Source: a virus
Lineage: Duplodnaviria; Heunggongvirae; Uroviricota; Caudoviricetes
IMG/VR virus record: IMGVR_UViG_2690316028_000009
DNA: 5,051 nucleotides
Reading direction: 5' to 3' (one strand)
Under the pieces are notes generated by a model that was not told where the DNA came from, made no database searches, and worked only from the letters and a program-made list of their open reading frames with translations. Below are positions 1 through 5,051 of the stretch, one piece after another. The position numbers and the translations under genes are program-made. Each line of letters starts with the position of its first letter. Positions within the stretch are counted from its first letter, which is position 1.

Positions 1-126
1 GAGGGATTTCAAACCCGCCATCAATACCACCCCAGGCAGCGTCAGCATTAAGCCCGTTATCGGGCACATGACAGTCGTATTGGCTGCAAGCCCAACACGC
101 TGCATTGCATAATCGAAAAATGACAT
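1..126 (-). CDS. Possible 5' end of a gene running off the left edge (42 codons seen, hydrophobic N-terminus MSFFDYAMQRVGLAANTTVMCPITGLMLTLPGVVLMAGLKSL); product unknown
   Basis: ATG at 126-124 with an AAAGG Shine-Dalgarno-like motif 9 nt upstream; open to the window edge. The opposite strand also carries an open frame entering from the edge and stopping near 110, so strand assignment is uncertain. Confidence 0.2.
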   Translation of the reverse strand, partial: MSFFDYAMQRVGLAANTTVMCPITGLMLTLPGVVLMAGLKSL

Positions 127-509
127 GGTGGTTAACCTTTCAATGAATGGGGCTTATTATACCATGCATAGCTCAATTATTAATCAATCATCATCGCATG
201 CTTGATGCCATTTAACTTTGTCGCAGGCACTCAGTGAATGTCTGCTGTAATGCCTGCTCAGCCAAGTTGAAGCACACCGTGTTCTTTTGAATCAGAGAAT
301 GCAACAAACCCAGTGTATTCGGGGATAGTGTTCCGTCATCAGCATCAAATGCTGAAATGGTTGCGTGAAGAATCAAAAATGCTCCAAATCCCGCGCCGCT
401 GCTGCCCCTCGATGGTCAGAATCGTCAAGGAGGACCCGTTAAAAGGTAAGCAGAAAATCTGTGGTTAGAAGTGAAGGCTTTGACAACGTTCTAAATTTTA
501 TGACAGAAA

Positions 510-544
510 TAAAAAAGCATTACCTTTCAAGATAATGCTTTTTC
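510..544 (-). terminator. Bidirectional intrinsic terminator downstream of the gns gene
   Basis: Perfect 7-bp inverted repeat AGCATTA (516-522) / TAATGCT (533-539) with a 10-nt loop, flanked by an A-run (510-515) and a T-run (540-544), so it reads as hairpin plus U-tract on either strand. Confidence 0.6.
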
Positions 545-567
545 ACTCGAACTGAGTCTTATAACAA

Positions 568-741
568 TTAGATTAATGTGATTTTAATATCATAGCTTTC
601 AAGCCCAGTCATTTTTTCACGAGCATTAAACTGGATATCGGAAACTTCTTTTCCTGTCTTTTTTTTGAGTTCAATAATTTTTTTTGTGATGAATTCAGAA
701 ATATCCGCTTCAGTTTTTCTTTTTAAATCTTCGACGTTCAT
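568..741 (-). CDS. gnsB: GnsA/GnsB-family small protein, 57 aa (MNVEDLKRKTEADISEFITKKIIELKKKTGKEVSDIQFNAREKMTGLESYDIKITLI)
   Basis: My own translation; absent from the ORF track, presumably below its length cutoff. GAGAGG Shine-Dalgarno 6 nt upstream of the ATG. The sequence closely matches E. coli GnsA/GnsB as I recall it (shared core NTGKEVSEI.F.AREKMTGLESYD.KI). The choice of gnsB over gnsA is contextual (next to a CspI-like gene) and not secure. Confidence 0.8.
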   Translation of the reverse strand: MNVEDLKRKTEADISEFITKKIIELKKKTGKEVSDIQFNAREKMTGLESYDIKITLI

Positions 742-945
742 TGTTTACCTCTCTTGATCTCTAACGTATCAACGCCAGGCATGTTACATTCCCCGTAGAG
801 CACTTGTATAAGCGCTGATATGTTTAAAAGATAGAATAGAAAGACTCAATTATCAATAGTTTGCAGTACAATCTTCATGCAAAAGAGCTCGCGACCACAC
901 AAACCACTGTACTAAAATCCGGGTCGGTCACGAAACAACCAGATC

Positions 946-1176
946 TCATTTCAAAAGCTTCGAGGCTGCCTCGAGGATCTCTTCTGAACTGACATCACGA
1001 TCAGAGGCTACATAAACTATTTTATGGTCTCCTGTCAGAGATGGAAATCCCGCTGACATCACGGGTAGGTGTGCTTTTTCCCCATTGGGAAACTCACGCA
1101 TTATCGTAGTAATACCTTTCATTACGGTTACAACAACTGCTGGTTCTGCATTAAAAAAAACGATGACTTTTTTCAT
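946..1176 (-). CDS. Hypothetical 76-aa protein between csp and gns; positional counterpart of the small cold-shock-associated genes (ymcE / ynfN) in E. coli csp-gns clusters
   Basis: ORF with ATG start and protein-like, non-repetitive composition; weak Shine-Dalgarno. I do not recognise the family from sequence, so the call rests on gene order only. Confidence 0.5.
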   Translation of the reverse strand: MKKVIVFFNAEPAVVVTVMKGITTIMREFPNGEKAHLPVMSAGFPSLTGDHKIVYVASDRDVSSEEILEAASKLLK

Positions 1177-1221
1177 AATTTTACCGTGATGTCTCTTACA
1201 GAGATTGTCGGTTCAGCATAC

Positions 1222-1243
1222 AAAAAAGGCTCCATAAGGAGCC
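1222..1243 (-). terminator. Intrinsic terminator on the minus strand
   Basis: Minus-strand reading GGCTCC-TTAT-GGAGCC followed by TTTTTT (plus-strand 1228-1243 stem, 1222-1227 A-run). It lies about 200 nt downstream of the csp stop. Confidence 0.65.
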
Positions 1244-1448
1244 TGAAATTTATTTTCTGAATTCTAACGAAGACTGACCAGAACGAATGTACAGTGCAAT
1301 ATTATCAAATGTAATCATTGTTGATTTGCAAAAAATACATTTTGCTCCGAAAGGATTTTTTTCAGTAACATCAAAGTTTGACGTTCGGTACTGAGATCCG
1401 TGGCAACACGGACATCTGAAGTGAATATTATTAGTAATAACAGTTACC

Positions 1449-1661
1449 TTATACAGCCACGACATTAACTGCCGTGGGGCCTTTAGGTCCCTGTTCAACA
1501 CTAAATTCAACTTCCTGATTCTCATTCAACGTCTTGAAATCATTACTCTGGATAGCAGAGAAGTGAACAAACACATCTTTACTACCATCTTTTGGAGTGA
1601 TAAAACCAAAACCTTTTTCAGGATTAAACCATTTAACTAAACCAGTCATTTTATTAGACAT
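1449..1661 (-). CDS. cspI: Cold shock protein, CspA family (CspI/CspG-like), 70 aa
   Basis: Translation [53 protein letters not shown]... carries the RNP1 (KGFGFI) and RNP2 (VFVHF) motifs. Start taken at the third Met of the track ORF (1661), which gives the canonical MSNKMTG N-terminus and an AAGGTAATG Shine-Dalgarno context like E. coli cspA. The paralog label is from memory of E. coli Csp sequences. Confidence 0.9.
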
Positions 1662-1900
1662 AAACATTACCTTTATTGAGTAAGCCCTTGGGCAGAATGG
1701 TCCGAAAAAAAATTATCAGAGAGAAAAGCTAACAAGGAAATCTCAACAGGAACAAGGAATAAAATTATTACAGCGACTGCTTCAGATAAATTCGTTACAA
1801 ACCAGACATTCATTAACGCATGATTAACCAGACATAGCAAGGTTTAGTTTTGTAAGTAAATCTCAGTGGGTTTTGATCTTAAAAATTAATTTAAATAGCT
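1662..1900 (-). promoter_or_regulatory. csp promoter and long 5' UTR (cold-shock thermosensor-type leader)
   Basis: Candidate -35 TTGCTA (plus coordinates 1835-1840) and -10 GTTAAT (1812-1817) at 17-bp spacing, preceded by a very AT-rich UP-like tract (about 1841-1900); this predicts a leader of roughly 145 nt. CspA-family mRNAs are known to have long regulatory 5' UTRs. Exact boundaries not determinable from sequence alone. Confidence 0.4.
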
Positions 1901-2233
1901 TAAATCGAAAATTATGTCATGCTGCGTAAGACCTTTATCTATCACCCTAAGTTGTCAGGGATTTTGACTCAAGGAAGAGTCGTATTTCCTTCATAGTAAA
2001 AATTCACAAATTTATCCACGAAAACCGTCAACATCTTAATTTATAGAGCTATTATTTTTCCTCTACGGTTCATTGTTAGTATTTTTACGGACTCATAAAT
2101 CCGCTCACATGTCATTCCTGCTCGGTAGTTTTCATCAGCGCGTTCAGCATGGTATCGAGCTTCTTCTGCCAGGCTTCCTGGCATGTCTACGAGCATTGTG
2201 GTGTCATGGCGGATGGAAAGTTATGTTGATTCG

Positions 2234-2437
2234 TTAGTTATCGAGCTGTAGAACGCTATGCTCTAGCGACTCGGAATAGGCAATCAGCCCGGTGTACTCA
2301 GGGATAACCTCGCCATCATCCGCTTCGAACTCAGGGATTGTTCCGGTAGTGATGGTATATTGTGGCTGGCCATCTTCTTTTGCGAAGGCAGCCAGGTCTT
2401 CAATCTGCTTAGCTGTAAGAACTACTGTAATGCTCAT
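2234..2437 (-). CDS. Hypothetical small acidic protein, 67 aa (13 Asp+Glu against 2 Lys)
   Basis: ORF with ATG start and protein-like composition; GAGGA lies immediately before the ATG with no spacer. No family recognised. Confidence 0.5.
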   Translation of the reverse strand: MSITVVLTAKQIEDLAAFAKEDGQPQYTITTGTIPEFEADDGEVIPEYTGLIAYSESLEHSVLQLDN

Positions 2438-2572
2438 TCCTCAGTTGTTAAAAAGCCCCGCTATTGCGAGGCTTGATTGATTATGGCTAACGACTACATC
2501 GTAACGGTTATAAAAGAAGCTATTAGCCAACATGTGGTGTATGGTTGTTAACCGCCCACCAGGACAATCAAC

Positions 2573-2746
2573 ATGTCGATACTCAAAGATATCAAGATGC
2601 GTACTTTACGCCATGTGAAAAGTACTTGTCCTCATTGCTCCCGCCAGTCAAAGCACAGTCTGTCGAGAATAAAAAACAATATAACGTTAATTTGCCCCTT
2701 CTGTGGAAACATCTATCTTCCATCGGAAAGCAAACCAATAAAGTAA
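2573..2746 (+). CDS. Hypothetical Cys4 zinc-ribbon protein, 57 aa (MSILKDIKMRTLRHVKSTCPHCSRQSKHSLSRIKNNITLICPFCGNIYLPSESKPIK)
   Basis: My own translation in a frame not listed by the ORF track. ATG with AGGA 8 nt upstream; CPHC-x18-CPFC motif typical of zinc ribbons. Preferred over the overlapping track ORF 2545..2754, which needs a TTG start and has no motif. Confidence 0.5.
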   Translation: MSILKDIKMRTLRHVKSTCPHCSRQSKHSLSRIKNNITLICPFCGNIYLPSESKPIK

Positions 2747-2821
2747 CTGATTGACTACCAAATAAAACTCATACTCTCAGAATGTGGCAAAGCAGACATA
2801 ACCTTTTATTGTTGTTCTCAT

Positions 2822-3052
2822 TTAAGAGAATGTAACACCCAGAGTGGAGAGGTTTTTTTTCTTCTCCACAATACGGCGATCAAGTTCAGCCACTGCATGC
2901 GGGCGTATGGCATCAAGAAAGGCGTTATCCTGATAGGTAGACTGGATTGTCACACCAAGTCCGGCACCACTTTCCAGTATGCTTTTCTGAAGTTGTAGTT
3001 CTTTTATATCGTTATTGAGGTAATACGCTTCACTTAGGTTTTCTGCGTTCAT
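2822..3052 (-). CDS. Hypothetical 76-aa protein
   Basis: AT-rich ORF with ATG start and weak Shine-Dalgarno; its start directly abuts the breakpoint where the GC-rich integrase remnant begins. No family recognised. Confidence 0.4.
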   Translation of the reverse strand: MNAENLSEAYYLNNDIKELQLQKSILESGAGLGVTIQSTYQDNAFLDAIRPHAVAELDRRIVEKKKNLSTLGVTFS

Positions 3053-3078
3053 CTTCTACCCGTAAAGTAGAATTAAAC

Positions 3079-3411
3079 AGCGAGGCGCTGGCCGCGCTGC
3101 AGGCGCAGAAACAATTCACTTTCATGAAAAGCGAGTTTATTTTCAGCGACCCTAAAACGGGAGAGCCCTGGGCGAACGCCGACGCAATACGAAAAAAAGC
3201 ATGGGTGCCAACCCTCAAAAAAGCTGGCGTTCGATACCGTAACCCGTACCAGACCCGCCACACATTCGCCACCAGACACATTAGCCAGGGCGTAAACCTT
3301 TTCTGGCTTGCCGGGCAGATGGGGCATAAAGGGCCGGAAATGCTGTTCCGCAATTACGGTAAATACCAGGCTGAATACGACGGGAAAACCGCCATTTCAG
3401 CAGCTCTGTAG
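3079..3411 (+). pseudogene. Tyrosine recombinase (phage integrase family) C-terminal remnant; N-terminal roughly two-thirds missing
   Basis: The reading frame is open from about 3019, but only from about 3079 does it look integrase-like: ...YQTRHTFATRHISQGVNLFWLAGQMGHKGPEMLFRNYGKY..., i.e. the R-H-x-x-R / LxGH / Tyr catalytic region. No arm-binding or core-binding domain is encoded upstream. The segment is visibly GC-richer than the flanking DNA. The two minus-strand track ORFs overlapping it look like GC-driven artefacts. Confidence 0.7.
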
Positions 3412-3529
3412 CGTCGTGAGTATTTCAAAATGTTGGACGGAATCAGGACGTTAGAGGGACCACGATATGCACGTAAAATGCACTTGAGGCCTTTCAAAAA
3501 AGACAAAACATTAATATTCAATAGGTTAA

Positions 3530-3570
3530 GCATTATTCGGACACGGGTTCAACTCCCGCCAGCTCCACCA
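3530..3570 (+). other. ssrA: Partial copy of the 3' end of tmRNA (ssrA), T-arm/acceptor 3' strand ending CCA; att-site core repeat, not a functional tmRNA gene
   Basis: GGACACGGGTTCAACTCCCGCCAGCTCCACCA matches the E. coli tmRNA 3' terminus (as I recall it) with one mismatch. Neither the tmRNA 5' end (GGGGCTGATTCTGG...) nor the body is present anywhere in the window. Confidence 0.8.
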
Positions 3571-3606
3571 AATATTGATGTACTGAAGTTCAGTAAAGTC
3601 TACTAA

Positions 3607-3638
3607 GCCCGCACAGCACAAGCTCTGCGGGCTTTTTT
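3607..3638 (+). terminator. Intrinsic terminator after the ssrA 3' fragment
   Basis: GCCCGCA (3607-3613) / TGCGGGC (3626-3632) stem followed by TTTTTT (3633-3638). Confidence 0.65.
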
Positions 3639-3693
3639 ACGTCTATTGTAGTCTAGTGAGAATTGCTGAGAACTACGAGTTATGGCACCCTGA

Positions 3694-3733
3694 ATGGGAC
3701 CCACGAAGATGGGTCCTAAAATCGAGGGTCCCA
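3694..3733 (+). promoter_or_regulatory. Three phased 10-bp direct repeats immediately upstream of the integrase start
   Basis: ATGGGACCCA (3694-3703), ATGGGTCCTA (3709-3718) and GAGGGTCCCA (3724-3733) at exact 15-bp spacing; the last overlaps the Shine-Dalgarno region. Confidence 0.3.
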
Positions 3734-3736
3734 AAC

Positions 3737-4966
3737 ATGGCCAAAATCGCTAAGAAGCTCACTGACACTGAAATCAAAAGCACCAAACCTGCCGAAAAAG
3801 AGGTTAACCTTTTTGACGGCGATGGTTTGCTGTTGCGAATCGCTCCCCTGGCGAAGGGAGGGAAGAAAAATTGGTATTTCAGATATGCAGTGCCTGTGAC
3901 CAAAAAGCGAACTAAGGTGAGCTTAGGAACCTATCCTCACCTTACACTTGCGAAGGCACGAGCTTTACGTGATGAATACTTGTCGTTGCTTACAAATGGT
4001 ATAGACCCCCAAGTTCATAACAACCAAAAAGCCAATGCACTGAAAGATGCCACGGAACATACATTTCAAGCAGTAGCCAAGAAGTGGCTTGATGAGAAAG
4101 TCAAAACGTCAGGCATCTCCCAAGATCATGCTAACGACATCTGGCGAAGCCTAGAGAGAAATATCTTTTCCACATTGGGTGATACCCCAATTAAGGAGAT
4201 TCGCCCTAAAATGCTTAAACAGCATTTAGAACCCATAGAAAAACGAGGTGTCCTTGAAACACTTCGCCGCATCATATCCCGCCTGAATGAAATTTTCCGC
4301 TATGCAGCAACAGAAGAACTCATAGAATTCAACCCGGCAGACAACCTGGGGCAACGGTTCAGCAAGCCAAAAAAACAGAATATGCCAGCATTACCCCCTT
4401 CCGAACTCCCTCGCTTCTTGGTTGCTCTAAACAATGCTTCTATCCGTTTGGAAACAAGGCTACTGATTGAGTGGCAACTTCTCACATGGGTTCGCCCAGG
4501 TGAAGCTGTTCGCACAAGATGGTCAGATATTGATATTGAAACTGGCATGTGGAACATCCCGGCGGAGTTTATGAAAATGAAGAAGCCTCACAAAGTTCCA
4601 CTGAGCAAAGAAGCTTTGCGAGTTTTGGATTTAATGAAAGTCATCAGCGGGCATAGAGAGTGGGTGTTCCCCAGTATCAAAGCTCCACTCAATCACATGC
4701 ATGAACAAACAGCTAATGCGGCCATAATCCGTATGGGTTTCGGAGGTGAGCTTGTAGCTCACGGTATGCGATCCATTGCTAGAACGGCTGCTGAGGAGTC
4801 TGGCAAGTTTAGGACTGATGTCTTAGAAGCCGCCCTTGCCCACTCGAAGAAAGATGAAATAATTGCAGCCTACAATCGTGCAGAGTATCTCACTGAACGG
4901 GTGGTTCTCATGCAATGGTGGAGTGACTATGTTTCGTCTCAAAAATGCAAAGTTATTGCCGCATAA
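3737..4966 (+). CDS. intA: Site-specific tyrosine integrase, P4 family (ssrA-associated island integrase), 409 aa
   Basis: N-terminus MAKIAKKLTDTEIKSTKPAEKEVNLFDGDGLLLRIAP...WYFRY is typical of the P4-type arm-binding domain; C-terminus carries HGMRSIARTAA ... AAYNRAEY (catalytic His, Arg and Tyr). GAGGG sits 9 nt upstream of the ATG at 3737. The track ORF begins at a GTG at 3656, which I consider an over-extension. The gene symbol is by analogy to the CP4-57 ssrA-linked integrase and is not sequence-verified. Confidence 0.9.
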   Translation: MAKIAKKLTDTEIKSTKPAEKEVNLFDGDGLLLRIAPLAKGGKKNWYFRYAVPVTKKRTKVSLGTYPHLTLAKARALRDEYLSLLTNGIDPQVHNNQKANALKDATEHTFQAVAKKWLDEKVKTSGISQDHANDIWRSLERNIFSTLGDTPIKEIRPKMLKQHLEPIEKRGVLETLRRIISRLNEIFRYAATEELIEFNPADNLGQRFSKPKKQNMPALPPSELPRFLVALNNASIRLETRLLIEWQLLTWVRPGEAVRTRWSDIDIETGMWNIPAEFMKMKKPHKVPLSKEALRVLDLMKVISGHREWVFPSIKAPLNHMHEQTANAAIIRMGFGGELVAHGMRSIARTAAEESGKFRTDVLEAALAHSKKDEIIAAYNRAEYLTERVVLMQWWSDYVSSQKCKVIAA

Positions 4967-5051
4967 CTCTCCCATGATGGATTAACTATCTTGATTTAGG
5001 GAAGGTGCGAACAAGTTCCTGATATGAGATCATCATATTCATCCGGAGCGC

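Follow-up and report, generated by a model that had tools for sequence, protein, structure and literature searches.

Introduction

Tandem accretion of mobile elements and the occurrence of P4-type integrases at ssrA, the tmRNA gene, are established, and the kind of feature described here is already known. Tandem ssrA islands bounded by 20-bp ssrA repeats have been documented (PMC3146451), in a report that cites Williams 2003 for the sublocations of insertion within ssrA, and ssrA-linked elements have been tabulated by integrase type (PMC10107115). The locus analyzed here is the same in kind as the documented tandem islands, with integration at the ssrA 3′ end and a P4-type integrase immediately after ssrA.

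One such element is the cryptic prophage CP4-57 of E. coli K-12, which encodes the integrase IntA, has its attL in ssrA, and supplies the functional 3′ end of that gene, which is damaged when the element excises (PMC10107115). CP4-57 resembles the island in the present sequence in having the ssrA CCA, a homologous GC-rich terminator, and a P4-type integrase on the same strand ~150–200 bp further on. It differs in integrase lineage (47% identity), in the spacer, and in the repeats upstream of the integrase gene. The cargo of the present island, as seen in relatives, is also unlike that of CP4-57 and includes a serine recombinase, two ParB-like genes, and a type I restriction-modification system.

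Phage LMessi and the ssrA prophage of E. coli MS 115-1 share with the present sequence the integrase family, the P arm, and the core, with ~94% identity to LMessi over attP. Unlike these two, the present sequence holds only the last 117 integrase codons and late cargo, with no lysis, replication, immunity, or early genes. Another lambdoid E. coli prophage at ssrA is the Stx1 prophage CP-1639, which presumably encodes that toxin. Its record includes ssrA and matches around the core, but the match covers only part of the att region, at 85% identity, and CP-1639 is a different phage.

The window examined here is the whole 5051-bp contig LLYK01000038.1 of assembly GCA_001484375.1. The contig stops short of the full ssrA, the left end of the prophage, and the right end of the island, and relatives were used for these. 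The window is very probably the place where a lambda-like prophage that has suffered a deletion meets a neighboring P4-type integrase island, both located at the ssrA 3′ end. Positions 3412–3736 can with high confidence be read as a hybrid att site, namely the attR (P arm, core, and B′) of the lambdoid prophage. B′ in this hybrid is the left end of a P4-type integrase island, which probably occupied the place just downstream of ssrA before the phage came. A full, working ssrA would be located upstream of the contig in the source genome. The features of the window are as follows.

58–3056, − strand: late-operon cargo of a lambdoid prophage, 99.9% identical to the EC2641 prophage over 58–3061
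3057–3061, no strand assigned: deletion junction with TA/CCC microhomology, from a three-way alignment with EC2641 and the MS 115-1 integrase
3058–3411, + strand: 3′ remnant of a lambdoid tyrosine integrase, 117 of 390 codons, in frame and ending in a stop
3412–3543, + strand: phage P arm of attR, identical to the attR of MS 115-1 and collinear with the attP of LMessi
3544–3570, + strand: 27-nt identity core (O), CGGGTTCAACTCCCGCCAGCTCCACCA, invariant in attP, attB, attL, and attR
3571–3736, + strand: left end of the island, 100% identical to the DNA directly after the full ssrA in many E. coli genomes
3737–4966, + strand: intact P4-type tyrosine integrase, 409 aa, with PF13356, PF22022, and PF00589
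5000–5051, + strand: end of an IS5-family element (ISKpn26-like), terminal 52 nt, 100% identical to the end of an ISKpn26-family copy in E. coli C1

The Lambdoid Prophage Remnant

The earlier note on this DNA, made from the sequence alone, had described an integrase remnant that reads toward the ssrA copy from the left. The reading frame at 3058–3411 (+), which matches the C-terminal part of PF00589, bears this out. The match spans profile positions 67–167 of 172 only. The remnant corresponds to residues 274–390 and keeps the HxxR motif and the region of the catalytic Tyr. Neither the arm-binding nor the core-binding domain is left, and the first catalytic Arg is also missing: the TGLRSSEL Arg box seen in the intact homologue falls 5′ of the breakpoint. 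The left-hand gene is not a functional lambdoid tyrosine integrase.

What remains of the gene is well preserved. Positions 3057–3300 have 100% nucleotide identity to the intact 390-aa integrase of E. coli MS 115-1, and the frame is unmutated except for one Q/L difference. The integrase had been called decayed, which is right in that it is a remnant and wrong in that its state is not one of mutational decay: the three-way alignment and the intact frame show a clean 5′ truncation by deletion. To judge from these alignments, the gene was truncated by an illegitimate deletion and not by slow decay. The truncation, together with the lack of any xis gene, would leave a prophage remnant that is unable to excise on its own.

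The complete form of this prophage is seen in E. coli MS 115-1. The order there is smpB, full ssrA, a 41-kb lambdoid prophage, its integrase, an ssrA 3′ copy, and a P4-type intA. The prophage genes are those for tail, head, terminase, lysis, Q, replication, cI, and integrase. Window positions 3058–3543 are identical to the integrase-proximal end of this intact 41-kb prophage, including 3400–3543, which are identical to the DNA between the MS 115-1 integrase and the core. The full ssrA of MS 115-1 is located 41 kb upstream of the ssrA 3′ copy. A full ssrA upstream and a second copy of the core, both anticipated in the earlier note, are thus found in this relative, where the prophage lies between the full gene and the 3′ copy.

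The deletion junction at 3057–3061 joins the start of a 76-aa late-region ORF to integrase codon 274. By exact match, it was not found in 5426 complete E. coli genomes nor among the GTDB species representatives. A chimeric contig of a fragmented draft genome could present such junctions, given its small size here (5051 bp), the IS at its end, and its mosaic makeup relative to every complete E. coli genome. However, three further assemblies share the 34 nt of the deletion junction exactly, which makes four independent assemblies in total and indicates that the junction is real. The hybrid att junction to its right recurs in two other genera as well as in 8 closed E. coli genomes. An assembly artefact is therefore extremely improbable.

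The left part of the window carries the cargo that the deletion brought next to the integrase remnant. It encodes a GnsA/B-family toxin, a YmcF-like gene, and a CspG-like cold-shock gene with a cspA-type 5′ UTR. This UTR is recognized by the Rfam cspA thermoregulator model with 141 bits (gathering score, 78). A DUF2514 (Rz-like) remnant, a YnfU-family gene, and small ORFs are also present, as assigned with Pfam. In E. coli EC2641, this cargo of ~3 kb lies between the Rz/lysozyme/holin lysis genes and the terminase of a prophage. The suggestion that the cold-shock module is cargo of a mobile element is borne out by its place in the prophage late region of EC2641, at 99.9% identity.

The deletion probably took place within one prophage. 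The gene orientations fit, and the lost segment would have held the lysis, Q, replication, immunity, and early genes. Judged by MS 115-1, the deleted length may be ~13 kb. Alternatively, the junction may stem from a rearrangement between two prophages, a reading considered because the left part of the window resembles the EC2641 prophage, which occupies another chromosomal site.

The ssrA 3′ Copy and Its Terminator

To the right of the integrase remnant, TTCGGACACGGGTTCAACTCCCGCCAGCTCCACCA at 3536–3570 (+) is identical to the 3′ end of E. coli ssrA, TTCGGACGCGGGTTC...CCACCA, at 34 of 35 positions. None of 200 shuffled sequences matches the ssrA 3′ end even with 3 mismatches allowed. The sole mismatch is a G to A change at 3543, in the first pair of the T-stem. 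To its right, the exact 27-mer at 3544–3570 agrees with ssrA at all 27 positions (chance expectation ~6e-13) and comprises the 3′ half of the T-arm, the 3′ strand of the acceptor, and the CCA.

No tmRNA gene is detected in the window by ARAGORN. The Rfam tmRNA model (RF00023) scores 30–34 bits, which is below its gathering score of 47, and its alignment is confident at the 3′ end only. The complete tRNA-like domain and the tag reading frame of a tmRNA gene are missing, and the feature is an ssrA copy without a tmRNA body.

Downstream is a 12-bp interrupted hairpin at 3605–3634, followed by a T run at 3633–3638. The 75-nt terminator stretch folds at −27 kcal/mol with z = −4.35, a value equalled by none of 200 shuffles. 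With a GC-rich hairpin directly before a T run, 3605–3638 has the makeup of a Rho-independent terminator. The earlier description of an orphan tmRNA 3′ copy without a body, with one T-stem mismatch and a terminator downstream, agrees with these results (34 of 35 nt, nothing from ARAGORN, z = −4.35). It had put the copy at ~40 bp, from 3530 to 3570. The copy is there, but that start is ~6 nt too far to the left, and the real extent is 35 nt (3536–3570).

A stranded ssrA piece with a strong terminator might also work as a small-RNA gene, be it of the IsrM type or one part of a two-piece tmRNA. The Rfam IsrM model does give 46 bits (E ~1e-11), and the tmRNA_permuted model gives 25 bits. However, the match to IsrM (RF02763, 329 nt) is limited to 8 nt at the start and the terminator, lacks the 272 nt of the body, and falls below the gathering score of 376; the 25 bits of tmRNA_permuted are likewise below its gathering score of 47, and ARAGORN reports nothing. 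No sigma-70-like promoter able to drive the orphan fragment is found on the + strand in 3000–3900, and the att comparison given below accounts for the stretch base for base. A functional small-RNA gene is highly improbable on these grounds. As specific candidates, an IsrM gene was rejected since only the terminator is shared (46 against 376 bits), and a functional or two-piece tmRNA was rejected on the ARAGORN result and on scores below gathering.

The P4-Type Integrase Island

The earlier note had placed an intact P4-family integrase 166 bp to the right of the copy, and such a gene is present at 3737–4966 with three Pfam domains. It starts 166 bp after the CCA and encodes 409 aa. All three domains are above their cut-offs and full length, with E-values of 5.6e-23 for PF13356, 3.4e-24 for PF22022, and 8.1e-20 for PF00589. 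The protein is 47% identical over 407 aa to the CP4-57-type IntA of MS 115-1. Its domain set, its homology to a recognized P4-type integrase, and its ssrA-adjacent position in relatives mark it as P4-type. This integrase is still intact while that of the prophage is truncated.

The left end of the island holds a small hairpin at 3577–3600 and GGGACCC/GGGTCC(C) repeats at 3688–3740, just before the integrase start. The terminator at 3605–3638 also belongs to it, and where the island adjoins ssrA this terminator serves ssrA. A chimeric query composed of the full E. coli ssrA and window positions 3571–3900 aligned over its whole length in 965 of the 5426 complete E. coli genomes, and in many of them the identity was 100%. 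Examples are E. coli C and ETEC M9682-C1. The state without the prophage, with ssrA directly followed by the island, therefore exists in related genomes.

The island is not confined to E. coli. A 36-mer of the terminator is found exactly in 15 GTDB species representatives, which include other genera of Enterobacterales. A match to a P4-type integrase lies downstream of the terminator in all 15, as fragments only in two of them. True ssrA 3′ context is directly upstream of the island in 12 of the 15, and in 10 ARAGORN finds a complete tmRNA gene 32 nt upstream of the terminator. In 13 of the 15 representatives, the integrase next to ssrA or to an ssrA 3′ copy is 75–99.8% identical to that of the window.

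Comparison of Kluyvera cryocrescens with E. coli delimits the island at its left side. The smpB side has diverged, the last difference in ssrA is at nt 315, and from there 99.8% identity extends through the island. This switch in identity indicates that the horizontally shared DNA begins in the last 48 nt of ssrA, and a boundary at this place is as expected for an element that integrates there.

The far side of the island is less well preserved. The distal parts of the island are broken up by IS elements in E94, C1, ETEC M9682-C1, and E. coli C, and a short-word BLAST search of the loci from these four did not find a distal copy of the core, nor was an empty site of the island itself encountered. 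Only chance matches of 9–15 nt were obtained, with loci that reach the core gene glaH in E94, C1, and ETEC M9682-C1. The island is probably mobile, as suggested by its integrase type, its position, and its identity across genera. In the window, the IS is inserted 33 bp after the integrase stop, at TTAG, where ETEC M9682-C1 has uninterrupted island DNA. The break of the contig at its right end is attributed to this IS5-family element.

Resolution of the att Site

Having an orphan copy between two integrase genes, the window was compared with the other products expected of site-specific recombination. A predicted attP was built from window positions 3058–3570 and the sequence after the full ssrA in MS 115-1. 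Phage LMessi (PP925823, 37-kb genome) matches this prediction over 913 of 913 nt, in one piece and at 93.8% identity. The integrase, P arm, core, and P′ arm are contiguous in this free phage, and LMessi is a free element with the core between the arms seen in attL and attR. The four sites align as follows around the common core.

attP, phage LMessi: left flank P arm, TTCGGACA; right flank P′, CTTTTGATAGG...
attB, ETEC M9682-C1: left flank ssrA, TTCGGACG; right flank island, AATATTGATG...
attL, E. coli MS 115-1: left flank ssrA, TTCGGACG; right flank P′
attR, window: left flank P arm, TTCGGACA; right flank island

In the four-way alignment, the flanks are swapped exactly at the 27-nt core. The P arm ends in an 8-nt ssrA-like stretch, 3536–3543, whose last base is specific to the phage: position 3543 is A in attP and attR and G in attB and attL. 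The A at 3543 was therefore contributed by the phage, which places the strand exchange to the right of 3543, inside the 27-nt core.

Other properties of the site are those of an att site. The orphan copy of the target-gene 3′ end is identical over the crossover core (27 of 27 nt, and 34 of 35 nt for the whole copy). Integrase genes lie beside it, with the remnant ending 124 nt to the left and the intact gene starting 166 nt to the right. The P arm contains TGCACGTAAAATGCAC at 3468–3483, a TGCAC-N6-ATGCAC motif. The P arm has this one copy and the P′ arm of LMessi has two, the LMessi-type P′ arm sequence being CTTTTGATAGGACTGCA..., and all of these are candidate arm-type integrase sites.

The proposal that two elements meet at ssrA is well supported by these comparisons. 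The left side matches the integrase-proximal end of the MS 115-1 prophage, the right side follows the full ssrA in 965 of 5426 genomes, and the attP is present in LMessi.

Recurrence and Order of Events

Among complete E. coli genomes, 8 have the tandem prophage–island layout, as recognized by the hybrid att junction, and so do Superficieibacter electus and Photorhabdus heterorhabditis. The particular pairing of the window, an integrase allele of the LMessi/MS 115-1 type together with its island allele and the prophage deletion, does not occur in any of the 5426 complete E. coli genomes. In MS 115-1, this type of phage integrase lies beside a different, intA-type island, which indicates that the two elements are independent modules.

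The order of events is likely to have been island, phage, and deletion. The P4-type island would have come first, directly on ssrA, and would have supplied the last ssrA nucleotides and the terminator. A lambdoid phage of the LMessi/MS 115-1 type would then have integrated in the 27-nt core by tyrosine-integrase recombination. Such an integration would give the working ssrA a new 3′ flank, the P′ arm of the phage, and would leave the old ssrA 3′ end and terminator stranded at attR, before the island integrase. Finally, an illegitimate deletion within this prophage would have taken out the lysis genes, integrase codons 1–273, and all that lay between them. The island-first order is favored by the widespread state of ssrA plus island, by an IS-broken island without a detectable distal repeat, and by a phage integrase allele that is that of the intact prophage.

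The same final map would result from the reverse order, in which the phage entered ssrA first and the P4-type island later entered the orphan core at the prophage attR. The orphan copy has a perfect 27-nt core that includes the CCA and could have been a secondary attB for the P4-type integrase. However, prophage-free ssrA plus island is common (965 E. coli genomes and 12 of the 15 representatives, 10 of these with a tmRNA found by ARAGORN), and the island looks old in E. coli, being disrupted by IS elements and having no distal repeat that could be found in four relatives. The prophage integrase allele, in contrast, is 100% identical to that of the intact prophage, which points to a recent arrival, and the same phage integrase type adjoins a different, intA-type island in MS 115-1. 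These observations make the reverse order quite unlikely, and entry of the phage into an ssrA that already bore the island is preferred. The earlier note had proposed a second element entering an attB that was rebuilt by an earlier ssrA island. The tandem att arrangement in that proposal is supported by the four-way alignment, with the island first and the phage second as the likely order.

It is very unlikely that the stranded ssrA end and terminator are transcribed as a tRNA-like or IsrM-like small RNA or are still usable by the P4-type integrase as a secondary attB. If the latter were true, the P4-type integrase could excise or capture DNA independently of ssrA, and the locked remnant with its cold-shock cargo would be mobilizable in a composite island.

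Implications

The finding is mainly a result of annotation, in that the contig is assigned to the variable region downstream of ssrA. The site also illustrates how an att site can be worked out to the single base from attP, attB, attL, and attR. For the biology of the locus, the cold-shock, Gns, and YnfU genes are assigned to a defective, locked-in prophage. The ssrA 3′ end and terminator would have come from the island, and not from the chromosome, before the phage arrived.

Cargo of the Prophage Side

The features below lie on the minus strand in the prophage portion of the window.

1-126, minus strand: YnfU-family open reading frame, its first 23 codons common to the copy in the E. coli genome EC2641
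1216-1292, minus strand: sub-threshold Rfam match to the Salmonella sRNA STnc220 (43 bits; gathering score, 60)
1390-1806, minus strand: Rfam cspA thermoregulator (141 bits; gathering score, 78)
2041-2196, minus strand: DUF2514 (Rz-like) remnant of 51 amino acids, matching profile positions 124-160 only

The cspA thermoregulator match extends from the 5′ UTR of a prophage-borne CspG-like cold-shock gene through its coding sequence (1449-1661) to its 3′ end. Because one YmcF-like and one GnsA/B-family gene are close by, the phage cargo includes a complete cold-shock module. Just past the YmcF-like gene is the stretch resembling STnc220, which contains a terminator-like hairpin.

In EC2641, the cargo block is flanked on one side by the DUF2514 remnant and on the other by an intact DUF2514 gene, which suggests that the cargo was inserted through duplication or recombination inside the spanin gene. 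At the left end of the window, the YnfU-family reading frame departs from the EC2641 copy after codon 23 into unrelated sequence (1-57) that continues off the contig, and this marks a second breakpoint or rearrangement.

The Integrase Island and Its Probable Transfer between Genera

Two features bracket the P4-type integrase gene of the island.

3688-3740: GGGACCC, GGGTCC, and GGGTCCC repeats, directly upstream of and overlapping the integrase start
5000-5051: end of an ISKpn26-like element of the IS5 family, inserted at TTAG, 33 bp past the integrase stop

The repeats may be arm-type or autoregulatory sites of the integrase; in the CP4-57-type island of E. coli MS 115-1, this position is taken by analogous repeats, GGCCCA/TGGGCC. 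The contig terminates in the ISKpn26-like element, whose insertion separates the island from the genes that usually neighbor it, two of them ParB-like and one for a serine recombinase.

When the E. coli sequence is compared with that of Kluyvera cryocrescens NBRC 102467, the left end of the island and its integrase (window 3536-5000) show 99.8% identity, whereas the smpB side reaches only ~75-85%. Judged from this disparity in sequence, the comparison points to a recent movement of the island between genera.

Relatives of the Island Terminator in Salmonella

The island terminator is also present in a Salmonella enterica subsp. diarizonae locus (L026, 6380-6460). The ssrA end ahead of it, CGCCAGCCACCA, is degenerate, being two bases short and without the T-arm. 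Only a fragment of the P4-type integrase follows the terminator, and the locus is an internal junction of a different, more eroded kind.

IsrM is an sRNA encoded on a Salmonella island. Window 3561-3638 gives a 46-bit Rfam match to IsrM that is confined to its first 8 nt and the terminator, and over its last ~50 nt the IsrM consensus has exactly the sequence of the ssrA-proximal terminator of the island. The isrM gene of Salmonella LT2 is flanked by STM2762 and STM2763, shares its strand with STM2763, and is located ~66 kb downstream of smpB (PMC2330248). Given this position and the identical terminator, Salmonella IsrM may occupy the equivalent island junction and may have borrowed its terminator from the island.
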